A stretch of 32,000 bases of DNA, from the NCBI RefSeq assembly GCF_008065095.1, contig NZ_CP042911.1, forward strand, positions 3,060,001 through 3,092,000, read 5' to 3'. Within the stretch, counting starts at the first letter, position 1. The number at the start of each line of letters is the position of its first letter. This document shows positions 4,693 through 32,000 of this stretch, in pieces. Below the pieces are notes generated by a model. That model was given only the letters and a program-made list of their open reading frames with translations, searched no databases and had not been told where the DNA came from. A program made the translations under genes and the position numbers. This DNA comes from Gemmata obscuriglobus. GTDB taxonomy: Bacteria > Planctomycetota > Planctomycetia > Gemmatales > Gemmataceae.

Positions 4693-4722
4693 CCTGCTCC
4701 CGACCCGATGAGGAAGACCGAC

Positions 4723-5727: not shown

Positions 5728-5814
5728 TACGGTGGGTTCGTTTTGGCCGGGCACCACGAACCGGGCCGACGCGCCGATCCAAGAGCGGTGCAGAAGCCGT
5801 GCTGCCGCACGTAC

Positions 5815-5869
5815 CCTGCACCTCCTGCATCTCCGTCACAGCGGGCGCCGGAATTGAAGGAGGTGCAGG
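5815..5869. repeat. Perfect 12-bp inverted repeat (cctgcacctcct / aggaggtgcagg) separated by 31 nt in a non-coding spacer
   Basis: Read directly: 5815-5826 cctgcacctcct and 5858-5869 aggaggtgcagg are exact reverse complements. The repeat lies ~90 nt after the stop of the last mobile-module gene. Confidence 0.5.
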
Positions 5870-8444: not shown

Positions 8445-8487
8445 TGCCCGGTGCCCATCATCCTATGCCCGCTCCCGTGAGGCGACC

Positions 8488-9591: not shown

Positions 9592-9596
9592 GGCGG

Positions 9597-9623
9597 GTGC
9601 ACGGGGTGGGAGGTCCGTGGCAC
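9597..9623. terminator. Possible bidirectional hairpin between convergent genes (no U-tract)
   Basis: gtgcacgg (9597-9604) pairs with ccgtggcac (9615-9623): 8 bp with one bulge and a 10-nt loop. It sits in the 38-nt gap between the stop at 9589-9591 (+) and the stop at 9630-9632 (-). Confidence 0.2.
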
Positions 9624-9629
9624 CTCGCA

Positions 9630-14567: not shown

Positions 14568-14600
14568 TCTCGCCTCGGACTGTGAGTCTACTCTCCGCAC

Positions 14601-14618
14601 CCCACTCGAACGAGTGGG
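14601..14618. promoter_or_regulatory. 8-2-8 inverted repeat (cccactcg aa cgagtggg) just upstream of the fusion enzyme start, in the divergent control region
   Basis: Read directly. The arms are exact reverse complements. The site lies 34-51 nt upstream of the ATG at 14567 (minus strand), inside the ~310-nt divergent spacer shared with the giant + strand gene. It could be an operator or a 5'-UTR hairpin. Confidence 0.3.
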
Positions 14619-14880
14619 TCATAGTGGCAAAAGTATGGCGCCGACGACGCGGGCACCTCCCGCATTCACCACCCGCGCTCGGTGGCCGTTGCAAATAACG
14701 ACTTGCGCCGGCGGCATGGGCCGAAAGTTCACTCGGGGCGAAGCTCGAAACGGGCCTACCGAATCCGCGAAGTTTTTGTGCGAGAGCATTTTTTAGCCTT
14801 GGACGAACTCTCGGCGTCGGATAAGCTACCTGCCTCTTCAATCTGATGAGATACCGTCCGTCGGTGCCGTACCCGGCCCG

Positions 14881-17800
14881 ATGTGGTCCTGCGCGTGTCG
14901 CAGGAATAAACCCCAACCCATCCCGCCCATGCCCCGCCGCATCCGCCTGTGGATCGACCCGTTCGCCGCCCTCATGGACCTGCGTGCGTTCGTCGCCGGA
15001 CGATGCCGACGCGCCGCGGCGCCGCTGACGCGTCTGTTCGCCGCACCGGGGAAAATTGACCCGCAGCCCCTTCTGGCGAAGCCCGAGCTGCGCCCGATGG
15101 ATTGGCGGAACCCGCCCTCGGAGACCCTCAGCGCGGCCGCCATACCGCTGGCGGCGACGGCCGCCGCCGCAACGATCGCGGTGTACGCGCTGGCCGACTG
15201 GCAAGCGGCCGAGCAGGTGGCCGCGGCCCAGGTCGGGGCCGGGGGCGGTGGGGGCGGGCCGGTCGACGGTTACGCCGACTGGGCGCCGACGCTTGCCGAA
15301 CCGGCGGCAACCCTAGACCAAGCAACCGGTTCCGTTGCACCAGCCGACGACGAATCCGACTTAACACCGCGAGACGGGGCCGACCTCGCCTTGGACGGAG
15401 CCGGTTCGTCCGAAGGCGACTTCGATTCGTTCGGCCCGGCCGTCGACTCGTACGCCGGTGCCGAGTGGTTCGGTGGTACAGGAGCGGGCGGTGGCGACCA
15501 ACCGGAGCCGTTCGGCGGTGCATTTAATGGCATCGCTGTCACCGACACAATACCGGACCCGGTCAGCGGTGTGCCGCCGGTTTTAACCGGAACTGAGCCC
15601 CAGAACTTGGTCGGCTCGGATACGCCGGGAACCGGCAACACCGGCCCGGGTGCGACACCGCTCCCGGGCGACGCGTTGACGCCCGCGAGCGCCTCGGGTG
15701 CCGAGCACCCGAGCCCCAGCTCCCCGACGGCCAACTTACCAGGCGACGCAGGCACGGAGCGCCCGCCGACGCTCGGGGCTGTCTCTCTGAGCCTCGACCC
15801 CACGTTCTTCGCCTCTGCAGTCACCCCCGACTCGGCGCCCGGCGCCGATCCGGTAACGATCACCCCGGCGGTGAGTCCGCCGGTCACCCCGCCAACCAAT
15901 CCCGAGCCGGTCAGCCCGCCCGTCACCCCCGGGCCGGTCAGCCCACCCACGTCTCCGCCGCTCCCCCCCGAGCCGGTGAGCCCGCCAACGTCTCCGCCAC
16001 TCCCCCCCGAGCCGGTCAGCCCGCCGGTCAGCCCGCCGGTCAGCCCGCCAACGTCTCCGCCGGTCAGCCCGCCGGTGAGCCCACCCACGTCTCCGCCGGT
16101 CAGCCCGCCGGTCAGCCCGCCGGTCAGCCCGCCGGTCAGCCCGCCGGTCAGCCCGCCGGTCAGCCCGCCGGTCAGCCCGCCGGTCAGCCCGCCGGTCAGC
16201 CCACCCACGTCTCCGCCGGTTATCGGAGACCGCGTGTGGAACGACACGAACGGCAACGGGATTCAGGATGGGGGTGAACCGGGGTTAGCGGGTGTTCTCG
16301 TGCGCATGTACGACGAGAACTCGGAATTTTACGCTAGCACGGTCACAGACTCCAACGGCGGCTACGCGTTTACAGGTGTTGGCGCGGGCTACTATCAGCT
16401 TCAATTTCAGTTGCTAACAGGTTACCAGTTCTCGCCTGCGAACGCGGGCAGTGACGACGCGGTCGACAGCGACGCCGACCCGCTCAGCGGCTTTTCCAAC
16501 TTCTTCTTTGTGACCTACGGAGCAGGGAACACCACCATCGACGCGGGCATGCGTCCGACGAACCCCCCGGTAGTCCCACCAACTACCCCGCCGGTGGTCC
16601 CACCGACCAGCCCGCCCCCGCCCGGATCCGACGTTCGGGCCAACACTTACACCTCCAACTATCAGACCGTACCGGCTGTGGCGAGCGATGCGGACGGCGA
16701 CTTCGTCATCGCCTGGATGAGTGATGGTCAGGATGGTAGCGGGTACGGGGTCTACGCCCAGCGGTACGCAGCCAACGGTACACCGGTCGGGAACGAGTTC
16801 CGCGTCAACACGACCACCCTCGGTGACCAGGGCTCACCATCGGTCGCGATGGACGCGGACGGCGACTTCATCGTCACTTGGCAGAGCTACGGACAAGAGG
16901 GCACCTATGGGAATTATTACGGCCACAACTTGGGAATTTACGCCCAGCGGTACTCGGCCAGTGGGGCGGCTGTCGGCTCCGAGTTCCGGGTCAACACGTT
17001 CACCTACGGCCTCCAGTTCCAACCATCGGTAGCGATGGACGCGGACGGCGACTTCGTCATTGCCTGGGCGAGTGGCGGGCAGGGGCCCGGGAGCAACTGG
17101 TATGACGTCTACGCCCAGCGGTACTCGGCCAGCGGCGCCGCGCTCGGCTCCGAGTTCCGGGTCAACACGTACATTACCAGCAGTCAGATGGACCCGGCGG
17201 TGACGATGGACGCGGACGGCGACTTCGTCATCGCCTGGGAGAGCCAAGGCCAGGACGGCAGTGTGGGCGGGATCTACGCCCAGCGGTACACGGCCGGCGG
17301 CGCCGCGCTCGGGTCCGAGTTCCGGGTCAACACGTACACCACAAACCAGCAGATGGGCCCGGCGGTAGCCGCGGACGCGAACGGGGGGTTCGTTGTCGTC
17401 TGGCTGAGTTCCGGTCAAGAGGGTAGTGCGTCGAGGGTCTACGCCCAGCGGTACGCGGCCAACGGCACCGCGCTCGGGTCCGAGTTCCGGGTCAACACGT
17501 ACACCGGCGGTCATCAGAGCTCACCGTCGGTGGCGGTGGACGCGGACGGCGATTTCGTCGTGACCTGGCAGAGCTACGGACAGGACGGCAGCAGGTACGG
17601 AGTCTGGGCTCAGCGGTACAACTCAACCGGCACCGCTGTCGGGTCCGAGTTCCGGGTCAATACGTACACCGCCGGCGATCAGATGTTCCCGACGGTGGCG
17701 GTGGACGCGGACGGGGATGCCGTGGTCGCCTGGCAGAGCGCCGCCCAGGACGGCAGCGGCAACGGCATCTACTTCGCCCTGTTGGGCGGCGGTAGCTCCC

Positions 17801-20800
17801 CTCCGCCGGTCGTTCCGCCCACCAACCCACCACCGGCGGGACCGGAGGTTCGCGCCAACACGCACACCACGGGCCACCAGGTCGGAGCGTCGGTGGCAAC
17901 GGACGCGGACGGGAACTTCGTGGTCGCCTGGACGAGCCAAGACCAGGACGGCAGCGGGACCGGGATCTACGCCCAGCGGTACGCGGCCAACGGGATGCCC
18001 CTGGGGGGCGAGTTCCGGGTCAACACGTACACCACCGGCCACCAGGCCGGAGCGTCGGTGGCGATGGACGCGGACGGGGACTTCGTGGTCGCCTGGGCGA
18101 GCGCGGGGCAGGACGGCAGCGGATATGGGATCTACGCCCAGCGGTACGCGGCCAGCGGGGTGCCCCTGGGGGGCGAGTACCGGGTCAACACGTTCACCAC
18201 CGGCAACCAGACCGAACCGTCGGTGGGTGTGGATGCGGACGGGGATTTCGTGGTCGCCTGGCAGACCTACGTACCGGGGTCCGGGCTCGGCGGGTACGAG
18301 ATCCAGGCCCGGCGGTATTCGGCCAGCGGTGCCGCGCTCGGCTCCGAGTTCCGGGTCAACACGTACACCACCAACGACCAAGCGATTCCGTCGGTGTCTG
18401 TGGCAGCGGGCGGAAACTTCGTGATCGCCTGGCAGAGCTACGGCCAAGACGGTAGCGGGACTGAGGTGTACGCCCGACGGTATTCGGCCGGCGGTGATCC
18501 TTTGGGCACCGAGTTCCGGGTCAACACATACACTGACGGTCACCAGGTAGCCCCATCAGTCGGCCTGGACGCGAGCGGGAACTTCGTCGTCGCCTGGCAG
18601 AGCAGTGGGCAAGGTGACTGGGGGTGGAGGATTTACGCCCGGCGGTACTCGGCCGGCGGTACCGCGCTCGGTTCCGAGTTTCGCGTCGGCGAGTACACCA
18701 CCGGCTACCAGGCTGACCCGTCGGTAGCGGTGGACGCGGACGGAGACTTCATCATCTCCTGGACGAGCGCCGGGGAAGACGGCAGCGGCAACGGCATCTA
18801 CGCCCAACGGTACAGTTCGGCCGGCACGACGCAAGGTACGGCACTTCGGGTCAACACGTACACCGCCGGCGATCAGATGTTCCCGGCAGTGGCGGTGAAC
18901 GCGGATGGGGACGCGGTGGTCGCCTGGCAGAGCGACGGCCAGGACGGCAGCGGCAACGGCATCTACTTCACCCTGTTGGGCGGTGGCAGCTCGTCCCCAC
19001 CAGTCGTTCCTCCAACGGTTACGATCTCGGCGACAGGCGCGGGCGCGGGCGAGCCGTCGAGCACGGGGATGTACCGGATTTCGCGCACCGGCACCAGCGG
19101 CGACCTGGCCGTCACGTTCGTGCCGTCGGGCACCGCGGCACGGGGCGCCGACTACACGTTGAGCGTGGGCGGGGTGCCGGTGGCCGGCAACCAGGTCACG
19201 ATCTACAGCGGCCAGTCGTTCGTCGACGTGCTGCTCACCCCCGTCGACGACGCGGTGAGCGAGCCCACCGAGACCGCGGTGCTCACCCTCCAGGGCAGCT
19301 CCGTGTACTCCCTCGGGGCCGCGTATGCGGCCACCATCAACATCACCGACGACGATCCGTCGTTGCCTCCTCCGACGGTTACGATCTCGGCGACAGGCGC
19401 GGGCGCGGGCGAGCCGTCGAGCACGGGGATGTACCGGATTTCGCGCACCGGCACCAGCGGCGACCTGGCCGTCACGTTCGTGCCGTCGGGCACGGCCGCG
19501 TCGGGCGCCGACTACACGTTGAGTGTGGGCGGGGTGCCGGTGGCCGGCAACCAGGTCACGATCTACAGCGGCCAATCATTCGTCGACGTACTGCTCACCC
19601 CCGTCGACGACGCGGTGAGCGAGCCCACCGAGACCGTGGTGCTCACCCTCCAGGGTAGCTCCGCGTACACCGTGGGCAGCCCGGCCGCCGCCACCGTCAG
19701 CATCACCGACAACGACCTGCCGGCGGTCACGGCCGCGGCCCTCGACGCCACCGCCGGCGAGCCGTCGAGCACGGGGATGTATCGGATCTCCCGCACCGGC
19801 CCGCAGGCAGGGGCGCTGGAGGTCCGTTTCGCGCTCTCGGGCGCCGCCACGCCGGGCGCCGACTACACGCTGAGCGTGGGCGGGGTTCCCGTGGCGGGCG
19901 ACACGGTCACGATCCAGGACGGGCTGGGTTTCGTCGACGTGCTCCTCACCCCCGTCGACGACGCGACGGCGGAGTTCACCGAGGACGCGGTGCTGACGGT
20001 CCTGAGCGGCACCACGTACACCGTCGGCAGCCCGGCGGCCGCCACCGTCAGCATCACCGACAACGAGCCGCCGGCGGTCACGGTCACGGCTTTCGATGCT
20101 ACCGCCGGTGAGCCGTCGGACACCGGCACGTACCGCATCTCCCGCACCGGGGCGTTGGCCGGCGCGCTGCCGGTGACGTTCGTGCTGTCGGGTACGGCCG
20201 CATCGGGCGCCGACTACACGCTGAGCGTGGGCGGGGTGCCGGTGACGGGCAACACGGTCACGATCCAGGACGGGCAGGAGTTCGTCGATGTGCTCCTCAC
20301 CCCCATCGACGACGGGGTAGCGGAGTTTACCGAGACCGCGGTGCTCACCCTCCAGAGTAGCTCCGCGTACACCGTGGGCAGCCCGGCCGCCGCCACCGTC
20401 AGCATCACCGACAACGACCTGCCGGCGGTCACGGCCGCGGCCCTCGACGCCACCGCCGGCGAGCCGTCGAGCACAGGGATGTATCGGATCTCCCGCACCG
20501 GCCCGCAGGCAGGGGCGCTGGAGGTCCGTTTCGCGCTCTCGGGCGCCGCCACGCCGGGCGCCGACTACACGCTGAGCGTGGGCGGGGTTCCCGTGGCGGG
20601 CGACACGGTCACGATCCAGGACGGGCAGGGTTACGTCGACGTGCTGCTCACCCCCGTCGACGACGCGACGGCGGAGTTCACCGAGGACGCGGTGCTGACG
20701 GTCCTGAGCGGCACCACGTACACCGCGGGCAGCCCGGCGGCCGCCACCGTCAGCATAACCGACAACGAGCCGCCGGCGGTCACGGTCACGGCCTTCGATG

Positions 20801-23800: not shown

Positions 23801-26800
23801 CAAAAGTTTATACGCCTTGGACCTGGGGGCTACCTGTAATTTTGCCTCAATCTCAACCGATATCGAACACTGCGCCAATCGTCACTGCATTGCCGATCAC
23901 AGCAGTTGAAGGACAGCGCTGGGATGGTAAGATCGCTCAGTTTGTTGATCCATTCCCCGAAATGACAGGCACCTTTAGCGTATCTGTTGATTGGGGCAAC
24001 GGACATTATGCCGCAAACGTTCCGTGGTATCAGTTTTACCAAATAACCAACACGGGATACGGAACGTACGATATCTCAACATCGTATCGCTATAATTACG
24101 ATGGCATATACCAAGTAAAGGTGAGAGTTTATAAAACCTACTCAAACACTAATCAAATAGACACATCGGCGGAGAGTACTACAACAGCTATTGTCAGCGA
24201 GGCGCCATTCCGGGCCACCTCGCTGTCGGTGACCGGTGCCTCAATGGCTGGCACGGTCGGGCAGTCATTCTCCGGGGTCGTTGCGACCGGCACTCTACGC
24301 GATCCAGCGTACGGTACCGTGACCGCTTACATCAACTGGGGCGACGGTTCCGCGGAGCAGCAGGTCGCGGTGATTGCTGGAGCAACCTACTCCGTTTCGG
24401 GCACACACACGTACGCCTCTGAGGGTCTGTACAATGTGCGCGTTCGTGTGGAACAGCGGCCACCGAACGTGCAGACGCAACTGGTCCACTCGGCGAGCAC
24501 GACCAACACGATCAAGGTGACCGTCCCAGCTGTGTCGATTGCGGCCGCGCAGGATCCGCTCGCGGCAACTCAGAGCACGCCACCCGTCAACGTCGCACTG
24601 GCCGTCATCACCGACCCCCGGCCGGGGGTTACGGCGTCTGAGTACACGGCCGACATTTATTGGGGTGATGGGACCAAAACCCTCGGTACGGTGGCGGGAA
24701 CGGGCGGAACGTTCACCGTCAGCGGTAGCCACACGTATGGTGCGTCGGGGCCGTTTATCGCAGCCGTCGTCGCGCGCCGCGGAGCGGAGGTGTACGCGGT
24801 GCGGTTGGGAGTGACGGTCGCCCCGCCTCCCCCCCCACTGCCGGCCCCGACCAACGATCTGGTCGATTTGTTCGTGGACCCGGTTATCGCCCAGGGCGCG
24901 TACCAGGCCCAGGATCTCGTCGTGGCCCGGTTCCGAATCCGGGGCCAGGGCCAGTCGGTCGCGGGCTTCGCGGCGGAGATCCACTGGGGCGACGGGTCCG
25001 CGCCGACCCGCGGGCGGATCGAAGCGCTCCCGAGCGAGGACGGGGAGCTGCTGCTGTACCAGATCGTCGGTAGCCACCAGTACCGCGCGACGGGGGTGTA
25101 CGACACCACCGTCACGTTGATCAGCCGGAGCGCGAGTTGCCCGGACACGGTTGGCACCGGCGTGGTCGTCGTCTTGTCAGGGGCGGTGAAGGGGTTCGAC
25201 CTTCAGACCAGTGTGAGCTCCGACCTGCGGGACGTGGTGGTAGGTGAGTTCACTGACCCGAGCGACCCTCCCGCCAGCACCTTCTCCGCCTCGGTCAATT
25301 GGGCAGGCTATCCACCCTCCTCAAGCCCGGCGCGGGTCGTGCGTTTTGGAGCGGGCCACTACTACGTCGTTGCCAGTCGCGGATACGCATCGGCGGGCCA
25401 GTACCAGTACCAGGTGAATGTGTCTAGTCCCGGAGGGCTGGCGACCGGATATGGTACTGTAGACGTGCGCCCAACGGCGGCCGGAGTGCTCTCGGTGCCG
25501 TACCGTATGGAGGTGCCGACCACGCCGCTCCAATGGGCCGCGTTTACGGTGAACAGCGAGAACATTCCAAACGAGATCATCGACCGCAGTTACATCGACT
25601 GGGGCGACGGCAGCCTGCGCCTCACGGGTGACCGCGGCCAGGTCTGGGGAGGACTGCCGCAGCGAAGTGACATCCTGCTGAGCGGCGCACACGTGTTTCG
25701 GCAAGACGGAGTGCTCACCGTCACCGGTGGCGCGGCTGACGACGTGGGCGACCCGTACGTAACCGACTCTTGGTCCCTGCCGGTCGCCACCGCACCGCAC
25801 CGGTTGGTGGGCACCCGTCCTGTGCTCGCGGCGCGTGAGGACCGGGCGATCGGGTCTATCCCGATCGCCACCTTCACAGACGAGGGAACAGAGGCCACCG
25901 TTGACCAGTTCCACGCCCGGATCGACTGGGGCGACGGGACCGAGCCGTCCGACGACGGCACGCGCATCGTGCGGATCGACGACCGGACCTTCGCGGTGTA
26001 CGCCGACCACACGTACAACCAGGTGGGCGACTTCGCGATCACGGTGCTCGTCCACAAGGACGCGCCCGACGGCGTCGACGACGACATGCTCGCCGGAACG
26101 ATGGTCGCCACGCTGAAGGCGAGGGTGACGGCCGACCAGGCCGGGGTTAGCCAGACCGGTGCGGAGTGGTTCGCGGCCCTCCAGGGACAGAGCACCGGTG
26201 ACATCGTGCTCGGGGCGATCGTCGATCCCGCCCTGGCGGCAAACGCAGCCGCCCTGTCCGTGAACTGGGGCGACGGCTCCGCGCCACAAGCGGGCGAGGT
26301 GTGGCTGCGCCAGACCGGCCCTACCTCGTTCGAGGTGCTCGGCCGTCACACCTACGCCCAGGCCGGGATCTACGACGCCAAACTGACCGTCACGGCCGGC
26401 CCGAAAGTGTTCACGCTCGGCGGGCTCGTGCCGGTGTACCGGGCCGCGCTGGACACCACCCAGCGGACGTCCGACCCGGACCGCGGGGACTGGGTGCAGT
26501 TGGGCACCGCCGCGGTGTCGCTCAACACCGGCGCGGTGACCGTCAGCCACCCGCTCGACTTCGACCTGAGCCCGGGCACCGCCGTCGGCCGCAGCCCGTC
26601 CCTGGTGTACAACTCGGGCACCGTAGACGTGCGCCCGACCGCCGAGTTCCAGCTCACCGGACTGGGCGAAGCCTCGCCCAGCGGAATCAGCGTGACGACC
26701 AGTTGGGCCGACCGCAAGGAGCAGCCGGCCGTCACGTTCGCGGTGACGCCCGGCGCGCAGTTTGCGAACTACCTGTTCGGCACCCAGTCCGCGTACGAGG

Positions 26801-29800
26801 TGACCGAGACCGGGGCGTACGACTGGCGGTCGCACGTCCAGATCGCGATGGGGGCGAACCGGGCCCCGATCGAGGTGGAGGTGAAGGACCGGTCGCTGAC
26901 GGTGGTGACCGAGGACCACCCGGAGGTGCCGGTGCCGGTCGCCCACGGGTGGGGCATTGCCGGCATCGACCGGCTGGTGTGGGAGTGCCACGGGGACGTC
27001 ATCTGGGTCACCGGCACCGGCGACGCCCGGCTGTTCGAGCGCCTCGACGGCACCGACTACTGGTCCGACGAGGACTTCGGCGCGCTCCAGCGGAACATGG
27101 ACGCGAACTCGCCCGAGTACAAGTCGTTCGTGTACACGGCGCGGGACGCGTCGAAAATGTACTTCAGCGCCGCCGGGCTGCTGACCAAGGTGGTGGACCC
27201 GCAGCAGTTCGTGGTCACCTACGGGTACGACGCCGCCGGGCGGCTGACCGGGGTGCAGACGCCGGACGGGGGCGTCACCGCCATCGCCTACACACCCACC
27301 CAGGTCACCATCACCGAGCCCGGCAACCGGACCGTCACTCTGAACGTCGCGGGCAAGACGCTGAACGCGATCCAGGACGTCGACTCGACCAAGCACCTGA
27401 GCGCGTACGCGGACGTCGATAAGACTGCCGGCACCCGCACGTTCGGGTACAGCGGGGACCGGCTGACGAGCGACACGTGGAGCCCGCTCCAGACCGGGAT
27501 CGCGTACGACAAGAACGGGATGGTGAAGTCGGTCGACCGAGGGCTCGGGACGGTTTACACGATCGTCCCGGCGGCGGCGCAATCACTGGCGACCACCAAC
27601 GACAAGCCGGCCGACGCCCGCACCGCGGTGGCGACCCTCAAGGACCCGATCAACCCGGTCACCACCTACACGTACGACGCCCGCGGCCGCACGCTCCGGG
27701 TCGACGCCCCGCTCGGCGCGCTCGACCGCTACCTGTTAAACACAGCGGGGGACGTGGTCTGGCACGCGGACCCGCTCGACCGCAAGACCGTGTTCGAGTA
27801 CGACTTCAACGGCGACCTGCGGACCGTGGTCAACCCGGACGAGACCGAGCGGTCGTACCAGTACCACCCCAAGTTCGGCACCGTCACCCGGGCCACCGAC
27901 GAGCTCAGCCGAGCGACCGTGTTCACCTACGACGGCACCACCGGCCTGCTCAGCACCGTCGAGGACGCGCTGCACAACGTCACCAAGTACGAGTACTACC
28001 CCGACGCCGACGGCGGCGGGACACGGGCCGACCGGCGGCTCCTGAAGACCGTGACCGACGCCCTCGGCCACGTGACCAGTTACGCGTACGACGAGCACCG
28101 CCGGGTGAGCCAGGTGATCGACCCCGCCGGAGGGATCGTCACCACCACCTACGACGCCGCCGGCAACCCGCTGAAGGTTCTGACCAACCCGTCGCTTACC
28201 GGCAACACGAGCGAGGTGCGCACCACCACCACCGTCTACGACGGGCGCAACCAGTTGGTCCGGGTGATCGACGCGCGGGGCAGCGTCACCAGCACCGAAC
28301 TCGCTCCCAGCGGGCTGGTCGACGCCGTCACCGACGCGCTCGGGCGGCGCACCACCTACGCGTACGACCGGCGCGGGCTGCTGACCGGGATGACCGAAGG
28401 CATCGCCCCGGCGGCCGGGCTACCGGCTGGGGTGCCGCCCGCCCAGCGGTCCGAGGCGCGCGTCTACGACACGGCGGGCAACCTCAAGTCCGTCACCAGC
28501 GGCCTGGCCCCGGCCAACCCCACCGTCACGATCGGCGGAGCGGCCGCACCGCTTTCGTACCAGCACCTCACCACTGTGACGTACGAATACGACGCGCTGA
28601 ACCGGGTCAAGGGGGTGTACGAGGGGGTGACCGGTGCGGGCGCGTACCTGCGCGGCACCGAGACCGCGTACGACCGGGCCGGGAACGTGCGGTGGACCCG
28701 CTCCGGGCTGTCCACCACCGGGCAGCCGAAGGTTCTGTACTCCCGGCTCGGATACGACCTCCAAGACCAGCTCGGGCAGGTGATCGAGGCGTTCGGCCAC
28801 GCCCGCCTCCAGCGCACCACCACCACCGAGTACGACGACGTCGGGAACGTGCTGTCGGTGACCGACCCGCTGGGCCACGTGACCAGCTACGGGTACGACG
28901 AACTGAACCGGACGACCGTCACCTACGAGGCGTTCGGGACGAGCGACCAGCGGTCCACCGAGACCCACTACGACGCCGTCGGCAACGTCCTCTGGACCCG
29001 GGACCCGCGCGGCACCGTCACCAGCTACGGGTACGACCCGGCGGATCGGGTGACGCGGGTGATCGAGGCGTTCGGGGACACCGGGCCGGGTGGGGTGCAG
29101 CGCACCACCACCATGCTGTACGACAAGGTGGGTAACGTGCTCGCGACGTGGGCCCCGCGGTACCACGACAACCAGGCCCCGCCGGCCGGGGAGCCGAAGC
29201 ACGTCGTCACCAGCTACGTGTACGACGGGCTGGACCGGCGGACTCAGGTGATCGAGGCGGTGAACGTCGCCCCCGAGCAGCTCGGGCACGCCAACCCGAT
29301 CACCACCACCACCTACGACGCGGTCGGGAACGTGGTGTCGGTGATCGACCCGCTCGGCCGCACCACCAGCTACGCGTACGACGCGCTGGACCGGCCGGTG
29401 GCCGCGTTCGAGGTGTGGCAGTCGAACGGGACCGCGGCCCGCACCACCCGCACCTGGTACGACGCCAGCGACAACGTCGTCCGCCGGCACGCCGCCATCA
29501 CGGCCAACGTGGGCGGTGCCGAATCGACCACGAACCAGCAACTGTCCACGTACGCGTACGACGCGGTGAACCGGCCGATCTCGTCGACCGTCGGCGAGCC
29601 CGAGCGGGCGGTGCCGCCGGGTGGCGCGCCGCTGCTGCGGCTCACCACCACGTCGGTGTACGACGCCGCCGACAACCTGATCGAGTCCGTCGACCCGGAC
29701 GGCCGGCGGACGAGCATGGGGTACGACGTGCTCGGCCGGCAGGTCGAGCTGGTTGAAGCGTTCGGGGACGCCGGGCCGGGCGGGGTGCAACGCACCACCA

Positions 29801-32000
29801 CCATGCTGTACGACGCCGCGGACAACCTGCTGACCGTGTGGACCCCGCGGTACCACGACTCGGATCTGCTCGCGCCTGGGGAGCCCCGGCACGTGGCCAC
29901 CAGCTTCGGGTACGACGCGCTGAACCGGCGGACCCAGGTGATCGAGGCGTTCGGGGTCTCCGCCCTGCAGCGCACCACCACCACTGTGTACGACGCCGGG
30001 GACCTGGTCCGCGCCGTGCAGGAGCCGCTGCCCCGCACCACCACCTACGAGTACGACGCGCTCGGCCGGCGCACGCAGGTGGTTGAGCCGGTGGATGAAC
30101 TGGGCGTGGTGGTGTGGACGCGCACCACCGAGACAACGTACGACGCCGCGGACAACGTCCGGACCGTGGTGACGCCGCGGGTGGTCGACACCTCGCTGTT
30201 CAACGAGCCGGCGCTGCGCCCGGAGACGCGTTACGAGTACGACCTGCTGAACCGGCTGACGCGGGTGACGGAGGCGGCGAACGTGCCCGATGCTCAACTC
30301 GGACACGCCCCGCCCGCAACCACCTACCGGTACGACGCCGCCGGCCGTAAGATCCTCGAGATCGCCCCGGCCACCTGGAGCACCGAACTCCTCCGGAACA
30401 CCAGCCAGGCGACCAGCTACACGTACGACACCCTCGACCGGGCCGTGACGGTCGAAGAGGGCCGGTGGGACCCGCAGGCGGCAACCCCGTTCGCCGCCAT
30501 CCGCCGTACGACAATGAAGTACGACGGCCAGGACAACCTGGTCGGGCAAACGCGCGGCATCATGGCAACCGGCGTGGCGACGATGGTCGAGGCCACGACG
30601 ACCACCGCCTTCGTATTCGACGCCGCGGGCCGTCAGGTGGCCGTGACCGAGGCCGTCGGACGGCCGGAGCAGCGGACCACCACCCGGGAGTACGACGGGG
30701 CCGGGCACGTGGTGCTCGAGCGCCTCACCCCGAACGAGTACCGGCTCGAGGGCGTTCCGGCCAACGAGCAGGAACTGGAGAAGTTCCGGCAGCGGCCGAC
30801 CACCAAGTACACGTACGACGGCCTCGGCCGGCTCAAGACGACGATCCAGGCGTACGTGGCCCCGGGCGAGTTCTCGGGCGTCACCGACCCGGGCGGGCTC
30901 GGGCACCAGTCCCAGTTACCCGTCACCACCTACCAGTACGACGCGGCCGACCGGGTGATCCGGACCACCGACCCGCGGGGCGTGCAATCGACGTACGTGT
31001 ACGACGCGCTCGGGCGGCTGCGGGACGAGACCCAGGGCGCGAGCCAGGGGGACGCGACGACCCAGGGGTTCGTCGCCCTGCAGCGCGAGTACGGGTACGA
31101 CGCCGCCGACCGCAAGACGGCCGTCGGGGTGCGCAACCTGAACCTGGCCAACACCGACGCCACCACCGCGTGGACCACGTACGCGTACGACCTCCTGGAC
31201 CGCCCGACCGGGGTGACCGAGGGGGCCACCTCGGCCGTCGCGCGGAGCACCCTCACTCGGTACAACGACGACGGCACGGTCACCGTGACCACCGGTGTGT
31301 CGGCCACCGCCACGCTGACCGGCCCGACCGGCAACGCGCTGGTGTACAACCGCCCGGTAGAGACCCGGTACACGTACGACGCGCTCGGTCGGCTCGCCCG
31401 GGTGGACGAGGGCGCGAACCTGTCGGCGGCCGACGTCGCGGCGCTCGGGCACACCCGCCCGTGGACCACGTTCGCGTACGACGCGGCCGGGCACACGGTG
31501 GCCACGTTCACCAACGCGAGCACCACGCCTGGGGCCGACGCGGTCATCGTGACCCGGTACCTCATCGACGGTCTGGGCCGAGTGTGGCAGACCAACGAGG
31601 GCGAGGGGGGCGACGGGAACCAGTCCGAGCAGCGGGTCACGTCCGTCCGGTACGACACGCTGGACCGAGTGGTCGGCAAGGTGACGCTGGGCGACCCGTC
31701 GTGGACCCGGTACGACTACGACGCGCTAGGCCGGGTGACGAAACAGACCACGCCGGCGCTGGACCCGCTGGCGAAAGTCGACCCGCCCACGAACCCGCCC
31801 ACGGACCCGCTGTACACCGCGTACGTGTGGAACGTGTTCGATCAGGTGGTCCAGCAGTCCGACCAGAACAAATCAGAGGGTGAGGTGACCAACCGGTACG
31901 ACCGACTCGGCCGGCTGCGCACCCAGGTCAAGAAGGGCACGTGGGAGGAACTCACGTACCAGTACGACTTGGCGGGCAACCTGCTGCGGGTGGACGACAC
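14881..32000 (+). CDS. Giant (>5,700 aa, 3' end outside window) putative membrane-anchored surface protein with a C-terminal RHS/YD-repeat region
   Basis: Not in the ORF track. Frame +1 has a stop at 14794-14796, and I saw no stop in any segment I translated by hand (14797-16900, 17650-17850, 18840-19400, 22201-22380, 23401-24240, 26281-26340, 27181-27240, 31981-32000). The track lists no frame +1 ORF after 14796, which fits one unterminated ORF. The first ATG is at 14881; alternatives are 14929, 14974 and 15097, and none has a clear SD. A hydrophobic segment ETLSAAAIPLAATAAAATIAVYALA (~15121-15195) is a candidate signal anchor. Recognisable domains run throughout (see sub-features). Confidence 0.85.
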   Translation, partial: MWSCACRRNKPQPIPPMPRRIRLWIDPFAALMDLRAFVAGRCRRAAAPLTRLFAAPGKIDPQPLLAKPELRPMDWRNPPSETLSAAAIPLAATAAAATIAVYALADWQAAEQVAAAQVGAGGGGGGPVDGYADWAPTLAEPAATLDQATGSVAPADDESDLTPRDGADLALDGAGSSEGDFDSFGPAVDSYAGAEWFGGTGAGGGDQPEPFGGAFNGIAVTDTIPDPVSGVPPVLTGTEPQNLVGSDTPGTGNTGPGATPLPGDALTPASASGAEHPSPSSPTANLPGDAGTERPPTLGAVSLSLDPTFFASAVTPDSAPGADPVTITPAVSPPVTPPTNPEPVSPPVTPGPVSPPTSPPLPPEPVSPPTSPPLPPEPVSPPVSPPVSPPTSPPVSPPVSPPTSPPVSPPVSPPVSPPVSPPVSPPVSPPVSPPVSPPVSPPTSPPVIGDRVWNDTNGNGIQDGGEPGLAGVLVRMYDENSEFYASTVTDSNGGYAFTGVGAGYYQLQFQLLTGYQFSPANAGSDDAVDSDADPLSGFSNFFFVTYGAGNTTIDAGMRPTNPPVVPPTTPPVVPPTSPPPPGSDVRANTYTSNYQTVPAVASDADGDFVIAWMSDGQDGSGYGVYAQRYAANGTPVGNEFRVNTTTLGDQGSPSVAMDADGDFIVTWQSYGQEGTYGNYYGHNLGIYAQRYSASGAAVGSEFRVNTFTYGLQFQPSVAMDADGDFVIAWASGGQGPGSNWYDVYAQRYSASGAALGSEFRVNTYITSSQMDPAVTMDADGDFVIAWESQGQDGSVGGIYAQRYTAGGAALGSEFRVNTYTTNQQMGPAVAADANGGFVVVWLSSGQEGSASRVYAQRYAANGTALGSEFRVNTYTGGHQSSPSVAVDADGDFVVTWQSYGQDGSRYGVWAQRYNSTGTAVGSEFRVNTYTAGDQMFPTVAVDADGDAVVAWQSAAQDGSGNGIYFALLGGGSSPPPVVPPTNPPPAGPEVRANTHTTGHQVGASVATDADGNFVVAWTSQDQDGSGTGIYAQRYAANGMPLGGEFRVNTYTTGHQAGASVAMDADGDFVVAWASAGQDGSGYGIYAQRYAASGVPLGGEYRVNTFTTGNQTEPSVGVDADGDFVVAWQTYVPGSGLGGYEIQARRYSASGAALGSEFRVNTYTTNDQAIPSVSVAAGGNFVIAWQSYGQDGSGTEVYARRYSAGGDPLGTEFRVNTYTDGHQVAPSVGLDASGNFVVAWQSSGQGDWGWRIYARRYSAGGTALGSEFRVGEYTTGYQADPSVAVDADGDFIISWTSAGEDGSGNGIYAQRYSSAGTTQGTALRVNTYTAGDQMFPAVAVNADGDAVVAWQSDGQDGSGNGIYFTLLGGGSSSPPVVPPTVTISATGAGAGEPSSTGMYRISRTGTSGDLAVTFVPSGTAARGADYTLSVGGVPVAGNQVTIYSGQSFVDVLLTPVDDAVSEPTETAVLTLQGSSVYSLGAAYAATINITDDDPSLPPPTVTISATGAGAGEPSSTGMYRISRTGTSGDLAVTFVPSGTAASGADYTLSVGGVPVAGNQVTIYSGQSFVDVLLTPVDDAVSEPTETVVLTLQGSSAYTVGSPAAATVSITDNDLPAVTAAALDATAGEPSSTGMYRISRTGPQAGALEVRFALSGAATPGADYTLSVGGVPVAGDTVTIQDGLGFVDVLLTPVDDATAEFTEDAVLTVLSGTTYTVGSPAAATVSITDNEPPAVTVTAFDATAGEPSDTGTYRISRTGALAGALPVTFVLSGTAASGADYTLSVGGVPVTGNTVTIQDGQEFVDVLLTPIDDGVAEFTETAVLTLQSSSAYTVGSPAAATVSITDNDLPAVTAAALDATAGEPSSTGMYRISRTGPQAGALEVRFALSGAATPGADYTLSVGGVPVAGDTVTIQDGQGYVDVLLTPVDDATAEFTEDAVLTVLSGTTYTAGSPAAATVSITDNEPPAVTVTAFDATAGEPSDTGTYRISRTGALSGALPVTFVLSGTAASGADYTLSVGGVPVTGDTVTIEDGQEFVDVLLTPIDDGVAEFTEGAVLTLQGSSAYALGSPAAATVLIASSDVFPTVTVFATDVSAGEPANTGAYRIWRTGTSGALPVTFVLSGTATPGADYTLSVNGVPVTGNQITIQNGQEFVDVLLTPVDDAVSEIAETAVLTVLSSTTYTVGSPAAAVVGIDDNDTRPTVTVFAIDSGAGEPSNAGAYRITQFGAGGPLTVTFVLSGTAARGADYSLVVDGVPVAGNQITIPAGQSSVDVVLIPADDGIVETPETAMLALQAGATYTIGALAAATVTITDDDTLANTTPSVTVTATDADAGESANSGTYRIFRTGPIGVELVVAVALSGTATRGADYTLSVGGVPVAGNQITIPADASFVDVLLTPVDDAASEVPEAATLTVQAGGGYAVGAPADATVVIADNDPAVTPPAGFKEGELIGAADPFGALLATFTHPDLFSDPSDFEAAVSWGDGTTNNTTSGVEIVPLGGGLFEVRAKHAYRERSAAGNPYQVVITVTTRADGSTASASGSLAIADAALTGRSHNFTAGLKVPYEGAIAVFEDANTLSPAANFEAQVQWGDGTQEKLTGASIRPLGAGVFAVVGKHAYQVAGAQPYTVTVLIQDVDGSAQAVTSTATVGAVALVASDYGVNVTATEGTAFSGEVAWFTTLDTNFDPATVLADVNWGDGTAIDFGRPVVARDGGGFTVAGTHLYARSGGYEIQVTIRPAAGGNNGARTIKGSALVLGGQITATGLPITVREGTGLGSGQVIATFTDAVAGTTATDYSAWVDLGNGDVASAPISKNGNHFEVRLARGYEQNGSYTATVTIRDNLGGSTAIVQSDVTVINAELAIEYVNLIGSGYGDLSFSMRVGFKENPYDRGENFTATVNWGDGTPASMHRVYGYGDHYNGNAFFSSYNPAGDGIDEIYYWLTPGQFEALPRHTYAAAGTYIITITITPDDGPAKVYTPWTWGLPVILPQSQPISNTAPIVTALPITAVEGQRWDGKIAQFVDPFPEMTGTFSVSVDWGNGHYAANVPWYQFYQITNTGYGTYDISTSYRYNYDGIYQVKVRVYKTYSNTNQIDTSAESTTTAIVSEAPFRATSLSVTGASMAGTVGQSFSGVVATGTLRDPAYGTVTAYINWGDGSAEQQVAVIAGATYSVSGTHTYASEGLYNVRVRVEQRPPNVQTQLVHSASTTNTIKVTVPAVSIAAAQDPLAATQSTPPVNVALAVITDPRPGVTASEYTADIYWGDGTKTLGTVAGTGGTFTVSGSHTYGASGPFIAAVVARRGAEVYAVRLGVTVAPPPPPLPAPTNDLVDLFVDPVIAQGAYQAQDLVVARFRIRGQGQSVAGFAAEIHWGDGSAPTRGRIEALPSEDGELLLYQIVGSHQYRATGVYDTTVTLISRSASCPDTVGTGVVVVLSGAVKGFDLQTSVSSDLRDVVVGEFTDPSDPPASTFSASVNWAGYPPSSSPARVVRFGAGHYYVVASRGYASAGQYQYQVNVSSPGGLATGYGTVDVRPTAAGVLSVPYRMEVPTTPLQWAAFTVNSENIPNEIIDRSYIDWGDGSLRLTGDRGQVWGGLPQRSDILLSGAHVFRQDGVLTVTGGAADDVGDPYVTDSWSLPVATAPHRLVGTRPVLAAREDRAIGSIPIATFTDEGTEATVDQFHARIDWGDGTEPSDDGTRIVRIDDRTFAVYADHTYNQVGDFAITVLVHKDAPDGVDDDMLAGTMVATLKARVTADQAGVSQTGAEWFAALQGQSTGDIVLGAIVDPALAANAAALSVNWGDGSAPQAGEVWLRQTGPTSFEVLGRHTYAQAGIYDAKLTVTAGPKVFTLGGLVPVYRAALDTTQRTSDPDRGDWVQLGTAAVSLNTGAVTVSHPLDFDLSPGTAVGRSPSLVYNSGTVDVRPTAEFQLTGLGEASPSGISVTTSWADRKEQPAVTFAVTPGAQFANYLFGTQSAYEVTETGAYDWRSHVQIAMGANRAPIEVEVKDRSLTVVTEDHPEVPVPVAHGWGIAGIDRLVWECHGDVIWVTGTGDARLFERLDGTDYWSDEDFGALQRNMDANSPEYKSFVYTARDASKMYFSAAGLLTKVVDPQQFVVTYGYDAAGRLTGVQTPDGGVTAIAYTPTQVTITEPGNRTVTLNVAGKTLNAIQDVDSTKHLSAYADVDKTAGTRTFGYSGDRLTSDTWSPLQTGIAYDKNGMVKSVDRGLGTVYTIVPAAAQSLATTNDKPADARTAVATLKDPINPVTTYTYDARGRTLRVDAPLGALDRYLLNTAGDVVWHADPLDRKTVFEYDFNGDLRTVVNPDETERSYQYHPKFGTVTRATDELSRATVFTYDGTTGLLSTVEDALHNVTKYEYYPDADGGGTRADRRLLKTVTDALGHVTSYAYDEHRRVSQVIDPAGGIVTTTYDAAGNPLKVLTNPSLTGNTSEVRTTTTVYDGRNQLVRVIDARGSVTSTELAPSGLVDAVTDALGRRTTYAYDRRGLLTGMTEGIAPAAGLPAGVPPAQRSEARVYDTAGNLKSVTSGLAPANPTVTIGGAAAPLSYQHLTTVTYEYDALNRVKGVYEGVTGAGAYLRGTETAYDRAGNVRWTRSGLSTTGQPKVLYSRLGYDLQDQLGQVIEAFGHARLQRTTTTEYDDVGNVLSVTDPLGHVTSYGYDELNRTTVTYEAFGTSDQRSTETHYDAVGNVLWTRDPRGTVTSYGYDPADRVTRVIEAFGDTGPGGVQRTTTMLYDKVGNVLATWAPRYHDNQAPPAGEPKHVVTSYVYDGLDRRTQVIEAVNVAPEQLGHANPITTTTYDAVGNVVSVIDPLGRTTSYAYDALDRPVAAFEVWQSNGTAARTTRTWYDASDNVVRRHAAITANVGGAESTTNQQLSTYAYDAVNRPISSTVGEPERAVPPGGAPLLRLTTTSVYDAADNLIESVDPDGRRTSMGYDVLGRQVELVEAFGDAGPGGVQRTTTMLYDAADNLLTVWTPRYHDSDLLAPGEPRHVATSFGYDALNRRTQVIEAFGVSALQRTTTTVYDAGDLVRAVQEPLPRTTTYEYDALGRRTQVVEPVDELGVVVWTRTTETTYDAADNVRTVVTPRVVDTSLFNEPALRPETRYEYDLLNRLTRVTEAANVPDAQLGHAPPATTYRYDAAGRKILEIAPATWSTELLRNTSQATSYTYDTLDRAVTVEEGRWDPQAATPFAAIRRTTMKYDGQDNLVGQTRGIMATGVATMVEATTTTAFVFDAAGRQVAVTEAVGRPEQRTTTREYDGAGHVVLERLTPNEYRLEGVPANEQELEKFRQRPTTKYTYDGLGRLKTTIQAYVAPGEFSGVTDPGGLGHQSQLPVTTYQYDAADRVIRTTDPRGVQSTYVYDALGRLRDETQGASQGDATTQGFVALQREYGYDAADRKTAVGVRNLNLANTDATTAWTTYAYDLLDRPTGVTEGATSAVARSTLTRYNDDGTVTVTTGVSATATLTGPTGNALVYNRPVETRYTYDALGRLARVDEGANLSAADVAALGHTRPWTTFAYDAAGHTVATFTNASTTPGADAVIVTRYLIDGLGRVWQTNEGEGGDGNQSEQRVTSVRYDTLDRVVGKVTLGDPSWTRYDYDALGRVTKQTTPALDPLAKVDPPTNPPTDPLYTAYVWNVFDQVVQQSDQNKSEGEVTNRYDRLGRLRTQVKKGTWEELTYQYDLAGNLLRVDD
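16021..16212 (+). repeat. In-frame 12-nt tandem repeat ccgccggtcagc (PPVS) with PPTS variants, 16 units; nine perfect copies at 16093-16200
   Basis: Read directly. The units encode PPVS PPVS PPTS PPVS PPVS PPTS (PPVS)x9 PPTS. A more degenerate Pro-rich tract starts at ~15868 (VSPPVTPPTNPEPVSPPVTPGPVSPPTSPPLPPEPVSPPTSPPLPPEPVS). Confidence 0.95.
16219..16551 (+). other. SdrD-B-like (Cna-B-type, Ca-binding) domain of the giant protein
   Basis: VIGDRVWNDTNGNGIQDGGEPGLAGVLVRMYDENSEFYASTVTDSNGGYAFTGVGAGYYQLQFQLLTGYQFSPANAGSDDAVDSDADPLSGFSNFFFVTYGAGNTTIDAGM matches the classical SD-repeat B-domain pattern (GD.VW.D.N.NG.QD..E.G...V.V.L...TD..G.Y.F..L..G.Y...F...DSD). Confidence 0.75.
16633..17793 (+). 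repeat. Block 1: seven tandem ~55-61-aa 'FRVNTYT..Q..PSVA.DADGDFVVAW.S.GQDGS..GIYAQRY...G...G.E' repeats (putative 7-bladed beta-propeller)
   Basis: Hand translation. Repeat starts are near 16633, 16798, 16984, 17152, 17320, 17485 and 17650. The block ends with GIYFALLGGGSSPPPVVPPTNPPPAG. Confidence 0.8.
17848..18987 (+). repeat. Block 2: seven more repeats of the same family (second putative 7-bladed beta-propeller)
   Basis: Repeat starts are near 17848, 18010, 18178, 18346, 18511, 18676 and 18844. The block ends with GIYFTLLGGGSSSPPVVPPT, almost identical to the end of block 1. Confidence 0.8.
19015..22188 (+). repeat. Nine tandem Calx-beta domains (~345-360 nt each), several near-identical at the DNA level
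   Basis: Example unit: TVTISATGAGAGEPSSTGMYRISRTGTSGDLAVTFVPSGTAARGADYTLSVGGVPVAGNQVTIYSGQSFVDVLLTPVDDAVSEPTETAVLTLQGSS..YSLG....ATINITDDD (Calx-beta pattern: G.A..G.DY....G.V.F..G.....V.V....DD...E..E.F.L.L). Units 1 and 2 are offset by exactly 360 nt (19021 vs 19381). The two-domain unit 19717-20418 recurs at 20419-21120 (702-nt period). Confidence 0.85.
22189..26440 (+). repeat. Array of about thirteen PKD-like / Ig-like domains (~105-110 aa) carrying an 'xWGDG(T/S)' motif
   Basis: Motif positions: SWGDGT 22321, QWGDGT ~22650, NWGDGT ~22962, DLGNGD ~23278, NWGDGT 23578, DWGNGH ~23989, NWGDGS ~24334, YWGDGT ~24658, HWGDGS ~24979, NWAGYP ~25297, DWGDGS ~25597, DWGDGT ~25921, NWGDGS ~26263. 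Each motif is followed by G.H.Y...G.Y.V.V.V, like the PKD signature WDFGDG...H.Y...G.Y.V. Confidence 0.7.
26440..32000 (+). repeat. RHS / YD-repeat region (Rhs/TcC/teneurin-type shell), still open at the window end
   Basis: An Rhs-type entry motif opens the region: VSLNTGAVTVSHPLDFDLSPGTAVGRSPSLVYNS (compare G.L....DL.LPG.G..L...R.YNS). At least 45 YD motifs follow, e.g. YGYDAAGRL (27223), YTYDARGRT, YAYDRRGLL, YEYDALNRV, YGYDELNRT, YAYDALDRP, YEYDALGRR, YTYDGLGRL, YVYDALGRL, YQYDLAGNL (31965). Confidence 0.85.

Follow-up and report, generated by a model that had tools for sequence, protein, structure and literature searches.

What does a bacterium make from a reading frame that continues for more than 17 kb without a stop codon, leaves the sequenced stretch before it ends, and is missing from the list of open reading frames (ORFs) drawn up for that stretch? 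The question is raised by 32,000 nt of the Gemmata obscuriglobus genome (contig NZ_CP042911.1, positions 3,060,001 to 3,092,000; this whole stretch is referred to here as the window), the right-hand half of which is occupied by a single giant ORF on the plus strand. Giant genes are common in Planctomycetes and are generally thought to encode surface proteins (PMC5177795). Our analysis suggests that this one probably encodes a stalked Rhs polymorphic toxin of about 6,934 aa, displayed on the cell surface of a Gemmata-type planctomycete.

14929-32000, plus strand: 5' part of the giant ORF, 5,690 codons from ATG 14929, running off the window

A stop-codon scan of the window found frame +1 free of stops for 17,204 nt (14797-32000), the second-longest stop-free run in the same frame being 1,149 nt. 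From about 14800 on, GC by codon position favours frame 1 of the plus strand, GC at third positions (GC3) is 0.85-0.97 over most of the ORF, and recognisable domains fill it over its whole length. The stop-free 17-kb frame described in the initial annotation is thus real, and codon-position GC and domain matches indicate that it is coding throughout. The same annotation called the gene invisible in the ORF track, which is correct as to the omission but not as to a biological cause: the ORF is missing because the list contains no ORF that is cut off by the end of the source. The eight ORFs of at least 300 aa that are listed over 15.3-32 kb are every one off-frame or antisense, long spurious ORFs being common because the G+C content of the window is 71%.

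The first codon is better placed at ATG 14929 than at 14881, the start proposed earlier. On sequence comparison the former appears more likely, since relatives conserve the N-terminus that it gives (MPRRIRLWIDPFAAL...) and the gene call in the public record CP025958.1 (GCA_003149495.1, chromosome of 8,998,893 bp) also begins at 14929. The total length was derived from the 6552-aa product that is called in CP025958.1 from window position 16075. If the gene is intact, the ORF in the window would be the first five-sixths of a protein of about 6,934 aa, with an estimated stop near window-equivalent position 35,733, some 3.7 kb past the window end, and an estimated C-terminal 1,243 aa encoded beyond the window.

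With residues numbered from the M encoded at 14929, the N-terminal part of the protein is built as follows.

14929-15126, plus strand: conserved leader, residues 1-66, an Arg-rich MPRRIRLWIDPFAALMDLRAF and then ELRPMDWRNPPSE
15127-15189, plus strand: hydrophobic segment LSAAAIPLAATAAAATIAVYA, residues 67-87, candidate signal-anchor or uncleaved signal
15190-15878, plus strand: acidic low-complexity Gly/Ala/Pro/Thr/Ser linker of about 230 aa (D+E 13%, K+R 0.9%)
15879-16248, plus strand: (PPVS/PPTS)n proline-rich stalk, tandem arrays with periods of 27, 39 and 12 nt

The leader, for which no Pfam or NCBIfam family was matched, aligns with the N-termini of three relatives, P0280, P0325 and P0355; RNPPS and PLA.TAAA...VY are invariant, and the N-terminus of P0280 reads MPRRLRLWIDPFAALQDLRAF...LELHPMDWRNPPSETIGGTVLPLAATAAAAAAAVY. 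The segment that follows it is the sole clearly hydrophobic stretch of the protein and contains the top Kyte-Doolittle 19-aa window of the ORF (1.84). After the hydrophobic segment P0280, P0325, P0355 and a fourth relative, P0241, all carry a comparable disordered linker of about 200 aa rich in G/A/P/S/T/D. That leader and linker are conserved in the relatives argues for ATG 14929 as the first codon and suggests a module dedicated to targeting or anchoring. As for the spread of the leader, a word-indexed search returned one weak match, and a metagenome scan with the leader alignment returned 600 stretches, none of which was confirmed by tblastn. The proline-rich stalk consists of 46% Pro, 19% Ser and 18% Val, and Tandem Repeats Finder (TRF) resolves a 12-nt unit repeated 16 times at 16011-16202.

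The remainder of the protein in the window is a chain of folded modules leading to an Rhs region.

16222-16551, plus strand: SdrD_B domain (PF17210, E 7.5e-34, 116.7 bits, profile 3-112 of 112)
16630-17796, plus strand: beta-propeller 1, 7-bladed, blades of about 55 aa with the pattern EFRVNTYT...DADGDFVVAW...YAQRY
17845-18990, plus strand: beta-propeller 2, 7-bladed, 66% identical to propeller 1
19006-22194, plus strand: nine Calx-beta-like domains of about 117 aa (TRF period 351, 8.9 copies)
22189-26463, plus strand: thirteen PKD-like domains of about 100-137 aa, with WGDG in 12 and GNGD in 1
23146-24189, plus strand: PKD-like units 4-6, a GC3 trough (0.64, 0.55, 0.46)
26510-32000, plus strand: Rhs/YD-repeat region, at least 1,830 aa in the window, with the start motif VSLNTGAVTVSHPLDFDL...SPSLVYNS

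This order and these counts (two blocks of seven repeats, nine Calx-like and thirteen PKD-like domains, then Rhs/YD) are all as the initial annotation had read them. Its SdrD-B call is solid as well, the PF17210 match being full length at E 7.5e-34. The likeness to Sdr proteins concerns the B domain only, the whole-protein NCBIfam models for SdrC and SdrD scoring 73 bits against a cutoff of 1700 and 65 bits against a cutoff of 2500, respectively.

The two repeat blocks are true 7-bladed beta-propellers, as judged from an AlphaFold2 (AF2) model of block 1. This model, made from a 40-sequence alignment, is a confident 7-bladed propeller with a predicted local distance difference test score (pLDDT) of 91.7 and a predicted TM-score (pTM) of 0.92. 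Its best fold match in the PDB is CylK (7ron, E 1e-13, TMq 0.76), followed by sialidase, glycoside hydrolase and NHL propellers. The structural likeness to CylK is accompanied by only 16% identity and by no sign of catalytic residues. Pfam GH43 and BNR_4 and NCBIfam PDIAV_lipo were considered as identities for the propellers and rejected, their matches being weak or below cutoff and amounting to resemblance at the level of the fold; the nearest named model to this EFRVN-type propeller is the NCBIfam 'PDIAV motif-containing lipoprotein', below its cutoff. There is no Pfam model for the family, the precomputed Pfam domains of its relatives being mostly none, or else located elsewhere or weakly of propeller type. 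The EFRVN-type propeller is nevertheless very widespread, with at least 6,755 matches at 41-62% identity in many phyla; many of these relatives stand alone at about 415 aa, and others come with type IX secretion system (T9SS) sorting domains or cadherin domains.

The Calx-beta call stands for the fold but not by the Pfam cutoff. The best unit scores 25.2 bits against PF03160, under the gathering cutoff of 27, and others score 18.9 and 15.4. A profile of all nine units searched against the PDB has the calcium-binding domains (CBDs) of NCX1 as its top six matches (best E 0.004), and with an AF2 model of pLDDT 88.1 the top 19 PDB matches in Foldseek are all Calx-beta domains (NCX1 CBD1/2 and CALX CBD1), the Calx-beta domain of integrin beta4 following at rank 22; the single-domain matches have TM 0.60-0.76 and 13-24% identity. 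These three lines of evidence, ranging from weak to good, suggest that the nine units are divergent Calx-beta domains. Acidic residues E16, D49, D74, D81, D82, E86 and E89 of the unit are invariant and are at most candidate counterparts of the CBD1 ligands. A rigid Ca-dependent fibre, as the initial annotation had suggested, is plausible. Units 3-4 and 5-6 (19717-21126) form a 702-nt tandem duplication whose DNA is 98% and 92% identical, and for units 1-2 the figure is 91%; judging from these sequences, the duplication is very recent and the array is actively expanding.

The PKD region passes both Pfam thresholds (PKD_4 63.2 bits, cutoff 27; PKD 52.6 bits, cutoff 23.5), and its profile matches the PKD domains of ColH in the PDB. 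The thirteen units pair one-to-one with PKD units of P0241, identity being about 50% in units 1-3 and 13 but 27-40% in units 4-6. Units 4-6 look like a lower-GC cassette that was recombined in frame into the stalk, judging from their base composition and divergence. At typical domain sizes, the 22 Ig-like domains, SdrD_B, both propellers and some 110 polyproline residues of the stalk would together span well over 100 nm.

That the region after the last PKD-like unit belongs to the Rhs proteins is shown by its repeats, which match Pfam RHS_repeat (PF05593, E 1e-112, 10 stretches) and TIGR01643 (E 1e-74). It is 43% identical over 1,100 aa to P0001, and the Rhs start motif is common to its relatives. 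The solved Rhs shells 8qja, 7q97 and 8h8a give weak matches, as does the teneurin shell 8fia (E 3.5e-4). An estimated 3,091 aa or so lie between the Rhs start and the C-terminus, and by analogy with the related locus L013 the Rhs region proper would take up about 2,600-2,700 aa, about twice the usual length. A partial DUF6443 match near the window end had raised the idea of a second Rhs protein in tandem; the match is short, repeat-like and sub-threshold, P0001 shows the same, and the idea was dropped.

Relatives show what such a region is coupled to elsewhere. With a query made up of the last PKD unit and 1,090 aa of Rhs, an exhaustive search gave 34,057 matches, the best of which are giants of 2,000-7,500 aa at 35-49% identity. 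A word-indexed protein search with the last 700 aa of the window listed matches that are all under about 1,230 aa, and a scan of GTDB representative genomes found only remote Rhs relatives at 23-29% identity. The modules of the relatives were assigned with iterated hidden Markov models of the window modules and by direct reading. P0253 (7,399 aa) has, in this order, Calx-like domains, an EFRVN-type propeller, further Calx-like domains, PKD-like domains and Rhs, with totals of 15 Calx-like domains, one propeller and at least 24 PKD-like domains. In P0247, P0252, P0279, P0277, P0312 and P0241 the Rhs region is directly preceded by 12-27 PKD-like units, while two propellers each are found in P0327 and P0260, Calx units in P0308, P0286 and P0295, and SdrD_B in P0376, P0349, P0293 and P0325. 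The initial annotation had not recognised the full combination of modules from any characterised protein and had singled out the long adhesin-type stalk ahead of the Rhs region as unusual. In other, uncharacterised giants, however, PKD-like, Calx-like, propeller or SdrD modules stand directly before the same Rhs clade, and P0253 combines Calx, propeller and PKD units. Judged by these sequences, the combination in the giant gene is one draw from a shared module pool, uncharacterised but not unique.

The relatives also indicate how the gene may end. The distance that separates Rhs start and core motif varies between about 1,300 and about 3,600 aa in complete relatives, and a DPxGL-type Rhs core motif is present in P0253, P0279, P0243 and others. 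In P0253 the Rhs region starts at residue 4774, the core lies near 6827 and a Hint domain at 7069, and a C-terminal domain follows. The closest collinear homologue is P0241 (49% identity); its ORF at L013, when read past an in-frame TGA, extends over another 2,173 aa, which hold RHS repeats, a PT-HINT domain (residues 1870-1999) and, at the end, a toxin domain of about 170 aa. Downstream of this toxin end come an ORF of 154 aa, an orphan PT-HINT cassette of 428 aa and the gene for an Imm26 protein. P0355 (locus L015) ends in PT-HINT and EndoU with a 106-aa ORF next to it, and at the P0325 locus (L016) PT-HINT is followed by a 165-aa ORF. The distance from Rhs start to C-terminus in P0241/L013 is about 3,018 aa, compared with about 3,091 aa estimated for the window gene. 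Because these lengths agree, the same C-terminal organisation is expected in the window gene.

Two further observations were made on downstream genes and on breaks in these relatives. At L012 (21311-23953, in an 8.3-Mb genome) two small leucine-rich repeat (LRR) proteins of 225 and 248 aa lie downstream of a giant Rhs gene, followed by insertion sequence transposases; LRR proteins are counted among the immunity-type proteins of polymorphic toxin loci (PMC3482391). The TGA of L013 (11963-11965) lies inside a YD repeat, between DTLT and SQRTTTFAYDLVGNV, and is found in L014 too, that is, in two independent assemblies, and the Rhs gene of L016/L017 is likewise split, into 2146 + 1333 aa. The breaks in L013 and L016 could be recurrent interruption, read-through or pseudogenisation.

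These C-terminal ends bear on whether the giant protein is a toxin at all. It might instead be a non-toxic structural or adhesive fibre, serving as a holdfast, in aggregation or like an S-layer, the YD cage then serving for binding or as a scaffold, much as it does in metazoan teneurins. Such a fibre would agree with the adhesin-type modules that fill more than 3,800 aa, with the occurrence of the propeller family on T9SS-sorted and cadherin-containing surface proteins, the lack of a toxin domain within the window, and the general view of planctomycete giant genes as surface-protein genes (PMC5177795). However, all relatives whose C-terminus was examined (P0253, P0355, L013 and L016) end in PT-HINT and/or a toxin-like domain, a small ORF stands directly after the gene in the relatives whose downstream DNA was read, and the length from Rhs start to C-terminus agrees with L013 to within about 70 aa. 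We therefore regard a purely structural fibre as improbable.

A toxin, on the other hand, need not be anchored to the cell, and an Rhs protein could be released like a Tc toxin (TcB/TcC) or delivered by a type VI secretion system (T6SS). By analogy with L013 the Rhs region would equal a TcB + TcC cocoon in length, at about 2,600 aa, and TcB/TcC-type fusions are known in Planctomycetia from locus L006. Pfam and NCBIfam searches, however, found no SpvB, TcdB_toxin_midN/midC, FG-GAP, PAAR, VgrG or T6SS families in the giant ORF or in neighbouring genes, and the N-terminus of the protein is a conserved leader with a hydrophobic segment, joined to a 3,800-aa stalk. A released or T6SS-delivered effector seems very unlikely on these grounds. 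Further Pfam negatives in the giant ORF are a two-partner secretion (TPS) domain and filamentous haemagglutinin repeats (neither matched anywhere in it by Pfam or NCBIfam) and NHL. The L006 locus (6644-13615, in a metagenome-assembled genome of Planctomycetia) encodes a 2,323-aa single-chain TcB/TcC-like fusion with SpvB, FG-GAP, TcdB_midN and RHS domains, and its sequence shows that the planctomycete phylum has Tc-type cocoons as well.

Whether the giant gene is intact was addressed by comparison with CP025958.1 over window 1-18445, where the two records are identical apart from one base.

16002-16008, plus strand: C7 homopolymer in proline codons; C6 in CP025958.1, which gives a frameshift

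While no stop or frameshift of the kind that would break up the gene is present in the window, the CP025958.1 assembly of this locus does have a frameshift. Its annotation carries two products for the gene, one of 382 aa (ATG, window 14929) and one of 6552 aa (GTG, window 16075) that continues past the compared flank. In the public annotation, a single homopolymer base thus divides the giant gene in two, and this may reflect a sequencing error or genuine variation. We take C7 to be the functional state; C6 would then be either a miscounted homopolymer in the consensus or real slippage. C7 is judged functional because the neighbouring copy of the 39-nt repeat likewise carries C7 and because the 16 kb beyond it are an open frame with a strong codon bias.

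The same base is the starting point for a different explanation, namely that the locus is a pseudogene or a phase-variable ON/OFF gene in which a change between C6 and C7 at 16002-16008 shifts the frame just past the leader. Part or all of the population would then make only a 382-aa leader fragment and at most a leaderless, non-exported product of 6552 aa. It is suggestive that the sole difference between window and CP025958.1 in 18,445 nt is a 1-nt homopolymer change that splits the gene, and that C or G runs of at least 7 are very scarce in the window, which has 4 of them where an independent and identically distributed model with the base composition predicts about 29, yet 3 of the 4 are located in the giant ORF. 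A C8 tract lies at 24,829-24,836. Two relatives are also interrupted, L013 by the in-frame TGA and L016 by its division into 2146 + 1333 aa. Against this, the window frame runs unbroken through 17.2 kb and keeps its strong codon bias up to the end, C7 is found in the neighbouring repeat copy as well, and a long-dead pseudogene would be expected to have gathered stops. Homopolymer miscounts are, moreover, a common consensus error of long-read assemblies. A pseudogene or phase-variable gene is accordingly unlikely, though it is the most serious of the alternatives considered here.

A second way in which the sequence could mislead is an assembly artefact, either a chimera or repeats that were mis-collapsed or mis-expanded, such that the true repeat number differs or the locus consists of several genes. 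The protein does contain near-identical internal repeats (the Calx units with 98%, 92% and 91% identity at the DNA level, and the (PPVS)n arrays), and two assemblies already disagree within the repeat region. The longest exact repeat, however, is just 151 nt, the independent record CP025958.1 matches window 1-18445 bar 1 nt and its gene call is a continuous 6552-aa product spanning the whole repeat region, and the order of domains is collinear with that of independent homologues. We give such an artefact very little credence.

The gene upstream of the giant gene offers a further clue to its biology.

9630-14567, minus strand: multi-domain glycosyltransferase of about 1,645 aa (Pfam Glyco_trans_1_2, GT4/GT1, GT2 and tetratricopeptide repeat, TPR)
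14568-14928, no strand: 361-nt intergenic region separating the divergent glycosyltransferase gene from the giant gene, presumed shared promoter

An orthologous glycosyltransferase is found in the same divergent position at L012, L013/L014 and L016/L017, and thus at 4 of the 5 leader-type loci including the window, with identities of 55-71% at L012 (P0280) and 38-52% at L013/L014 (P0241); L016/L017 is the P0325 locus. The stalk modules of these leader-type loci are wholly different, DUF7948, Big_13 and SBBP being found in place of SdrD, propeller, Calx and PKD. Since the stalks differ completely, what is conserved is the set of leader, linker, glycosyltransferase and Rhs region. L018, a relative without the leader, has restriction-modification genes upstream instead. 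Dedicated glycosyltransferases are known to modify the adhesins HMW1 and AIDA-I and the serine-rich repeat adhesins. By analogy, the enzyme, in which a hydropathy check found no hydrophobic or transmembrane segment, most likely modifies the Ser/Thr/Pro-rich linker before export. In the 361-nt region between the two genes, no promoter consensus of sigma-70 type was found.

Next to the glycosyltransferase, at 6336-9591, lie a TPR plus GT41-like (O-GlcNAc-transferase-like) protein of 702 aa on the minus strand and a DUF4915 protein (E 4e-117) on the plus strand. These two genes and the large glycosyltransferase gene may form a small glycosylation cluster; the GT41-like and DUF4915 genes were not seen in the upstream flanks of related loci, which are shorter. 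Further upstream of the glycosylation genes are mobile-element-like genes (window 1-5727, L011 12718-20395), a run that comprises a DUF3854 protein of 826 aa (1149-3629), several small unknowns and DUF1580; a phage-type integrase is encoded just before window position 1. Searches around the integrase and DUF3854 genes gave neither a tRNA gene nor a PADLOC defence system.

Putting these parts together, we propose that the lineage-specific leader (Arg-rich, with RNPPSE and one Ala-rich hydrophobic segment) would target the protein to the cytoplasmic membrane and probably anchor it there. The disordered acidic Gly/Pro/Ser/Thr linker, most likely glycosylated by the divergent cytoplasmic multi-glycosyltransferase, and the (PPVS)n polyproline spacer would come after the leader, and a rigid chain of beta modules (SdrD_B, 2 propellers, 9 Calx-beta-like and 13 PKD-like domains) would project an unusually long Rhs/YD cage outward. 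By analogy with close relatives, the C-terminal 1,243 aa would complete the cage and add the Rhs core autoprotease motif, PT-HINT and a polymorphic toxin, and a small immunity gene is expected downstream of the giant gene. The cage would encapsulate the C-terminal toxin, to be released by the Rhs core and PT-HINT autoproteases, and the propellers and Ig-like modules probably bind to the surfaces of target cells, such that toxin would be delivered on contact.

Several points weigh against this proposal. The C-terminus of the gene and the genes downstream of it lie outside the window, so that the toxin reading rests on homologues of 35-49% identity. The hydrophobic segment is rich in Ala, and its KD of 1.84 is no more than moderate. 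Some 6,900 aa would have to pass through a diderm envelope, and no secretion-system gene was recognised by Pfam among the genes of the window. In CP025958.1 the frame shifts after the leader; should the shift be genuine, that clone would not make the exported form. The link to the glycosyltransferase is purely positional, and L015, the fifth leader-type locus, has no glycosyltransferase in its 1.7 kb of upstream sequence. Finally, our literature searches found nothing on Gemmata YD/RHS proteins and no expression or proteome evidence for the giant protein.

A more specific form of the proposal, which we put forward tentatively and consider doubtful as a whole, is that Gemmata-type planctomycetes possess a distinct, undescribed Rhs display system. 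In it the leader (RLWxDxFxAL ... RNPPSE ... PLAxTAAAxAAxVY) and linker would be recognised and glycosylated by the dedicated glycosyltransferase, which would permit export of a freely exchangeable stalk of Ig-like and propeller modules that projects a double-length cage more than 100 nm from the cell, and slippage in the poly-C tract may switch the gene ON and OFF. Rhs/YD cages are a widespread means of packaging and delivering toxins and have been well studied in T6SS effectors, Tc toxins and teneurins, whereas their display by bacteria without T6SS, Tc or teneurin machinery is far less understood. The locus and its relatives form a coherent and apparently unstudied planctomycete subfamily, characterised by the leader, an interchangeable stalk, an Rhs region of about double length and a neighbouring glycosyltransferase. 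If the glycosyltransferase link and the surface display are true, this subfamily would give a tractable entry to planctomycete surface biology and contact-dependent antagonism, as strains of the Gemmata obscuriglobus type are culturable, and it would be a natural example of how far from the cell an Rhs cage can be held.

How does the giant protein compare with known systems? By domain tests it fits none of the T6SS-type Rhs proteins, TcB/TcC, CdiA and the defined teneurin-like proteins (TLPs). With TLPs and metazoan teneurins it has in common a putative membrane or surface anchor, variable N-terminal adhesion modules, a propeller and a YD shell. Bacterial teneurin-like YD proteins have variable N-terminal adhesion modules and encapsulated toxins (bioRxiv 10.1101/2025.11.11.687626); in TLPs, Ig-like and carboxypeptidase-regulatory-like modules and a beta-propeller accompany a YD shell that encapsulates a C-terminal toxin, and Planctomycetota are not among the six TLP phyla listed (10.1101/2025.11.11.687626). 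The contiguous TLP superfold of FN-plug, 6-bladed NHL propeller and YD shell is absent here, PKD-like unit 13 directly preceding the shell, and the propellers are 7-bladed, CylK-like and located about 2,500 aa upstream of the shell with 22 Ig-like domains in between.

HMW1/HMW1C, AIDA-I/Aah and the serine-rich repeat proteins with GtfA/B resemble the locus in that a giant, presumably surface-exposed protein with a Ser/Thr/Pro-rich region is encoded beside a cytoplasmic glycosyltransferase conserved together with it, a likeness of gene position only. Closer by sequence are the metagenomic giants P0253, P0241, P0247, P0252 and P0280, which belong to the same Rhs clade (35-49%) and have the same Rhs-start motif; P0253 shares the Calx/propeller/PKD/Rhs set, P0241 the collinear PKD units, and P0280 the leader and the orthologous neighbouring glycosyltransferase. 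They differ in the order and number of modules, none having (PPVS)n + SdrD_B + 2 propellers + 9 Calx + 13 PKD, and none has been experimentally characterised.

The functional class to which the protein is best compared is that of the stalked Rhs/YD polymorphic toxins (Zhang, Aravind and colleagues 2012, PMC3482391), such as WapA of B. subtilis. The initial annotation had nearly every detail of the anatomy right, an adhesin stalk followed by Rhs, but did not name this class. Stalked RHS polymorphic toxins with HINT are found in planctomycetes, and RHS toxins typically peak at 1,400-1,600 aa (PMC3482391). The giant protein, whose own C-terminus lies beyond the window, differs from typical RHS toxins in its length of about 6,934 aa, its non-Rhs stalk of about 3,800 aa, its stretch of about 3,090 aa between Rhs start and C-terminus (roughly double the size of a whole typical RHS toxin), its own leader and its conserved partner glycosyltransferase. 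The lineage-specific leader, the double-length Rhs region, the conserved divergent glycosyltransferase and the freely exchangeable stalk modules are apparently new. What it shares with the stalked toxins is putative Sec-type N-terminal targeting and RHS/YD repeats, and its relatives add the HINT domain, the polymorphic toxin, the candidate immunity gene and the orphan cassettes that are typical of the class.

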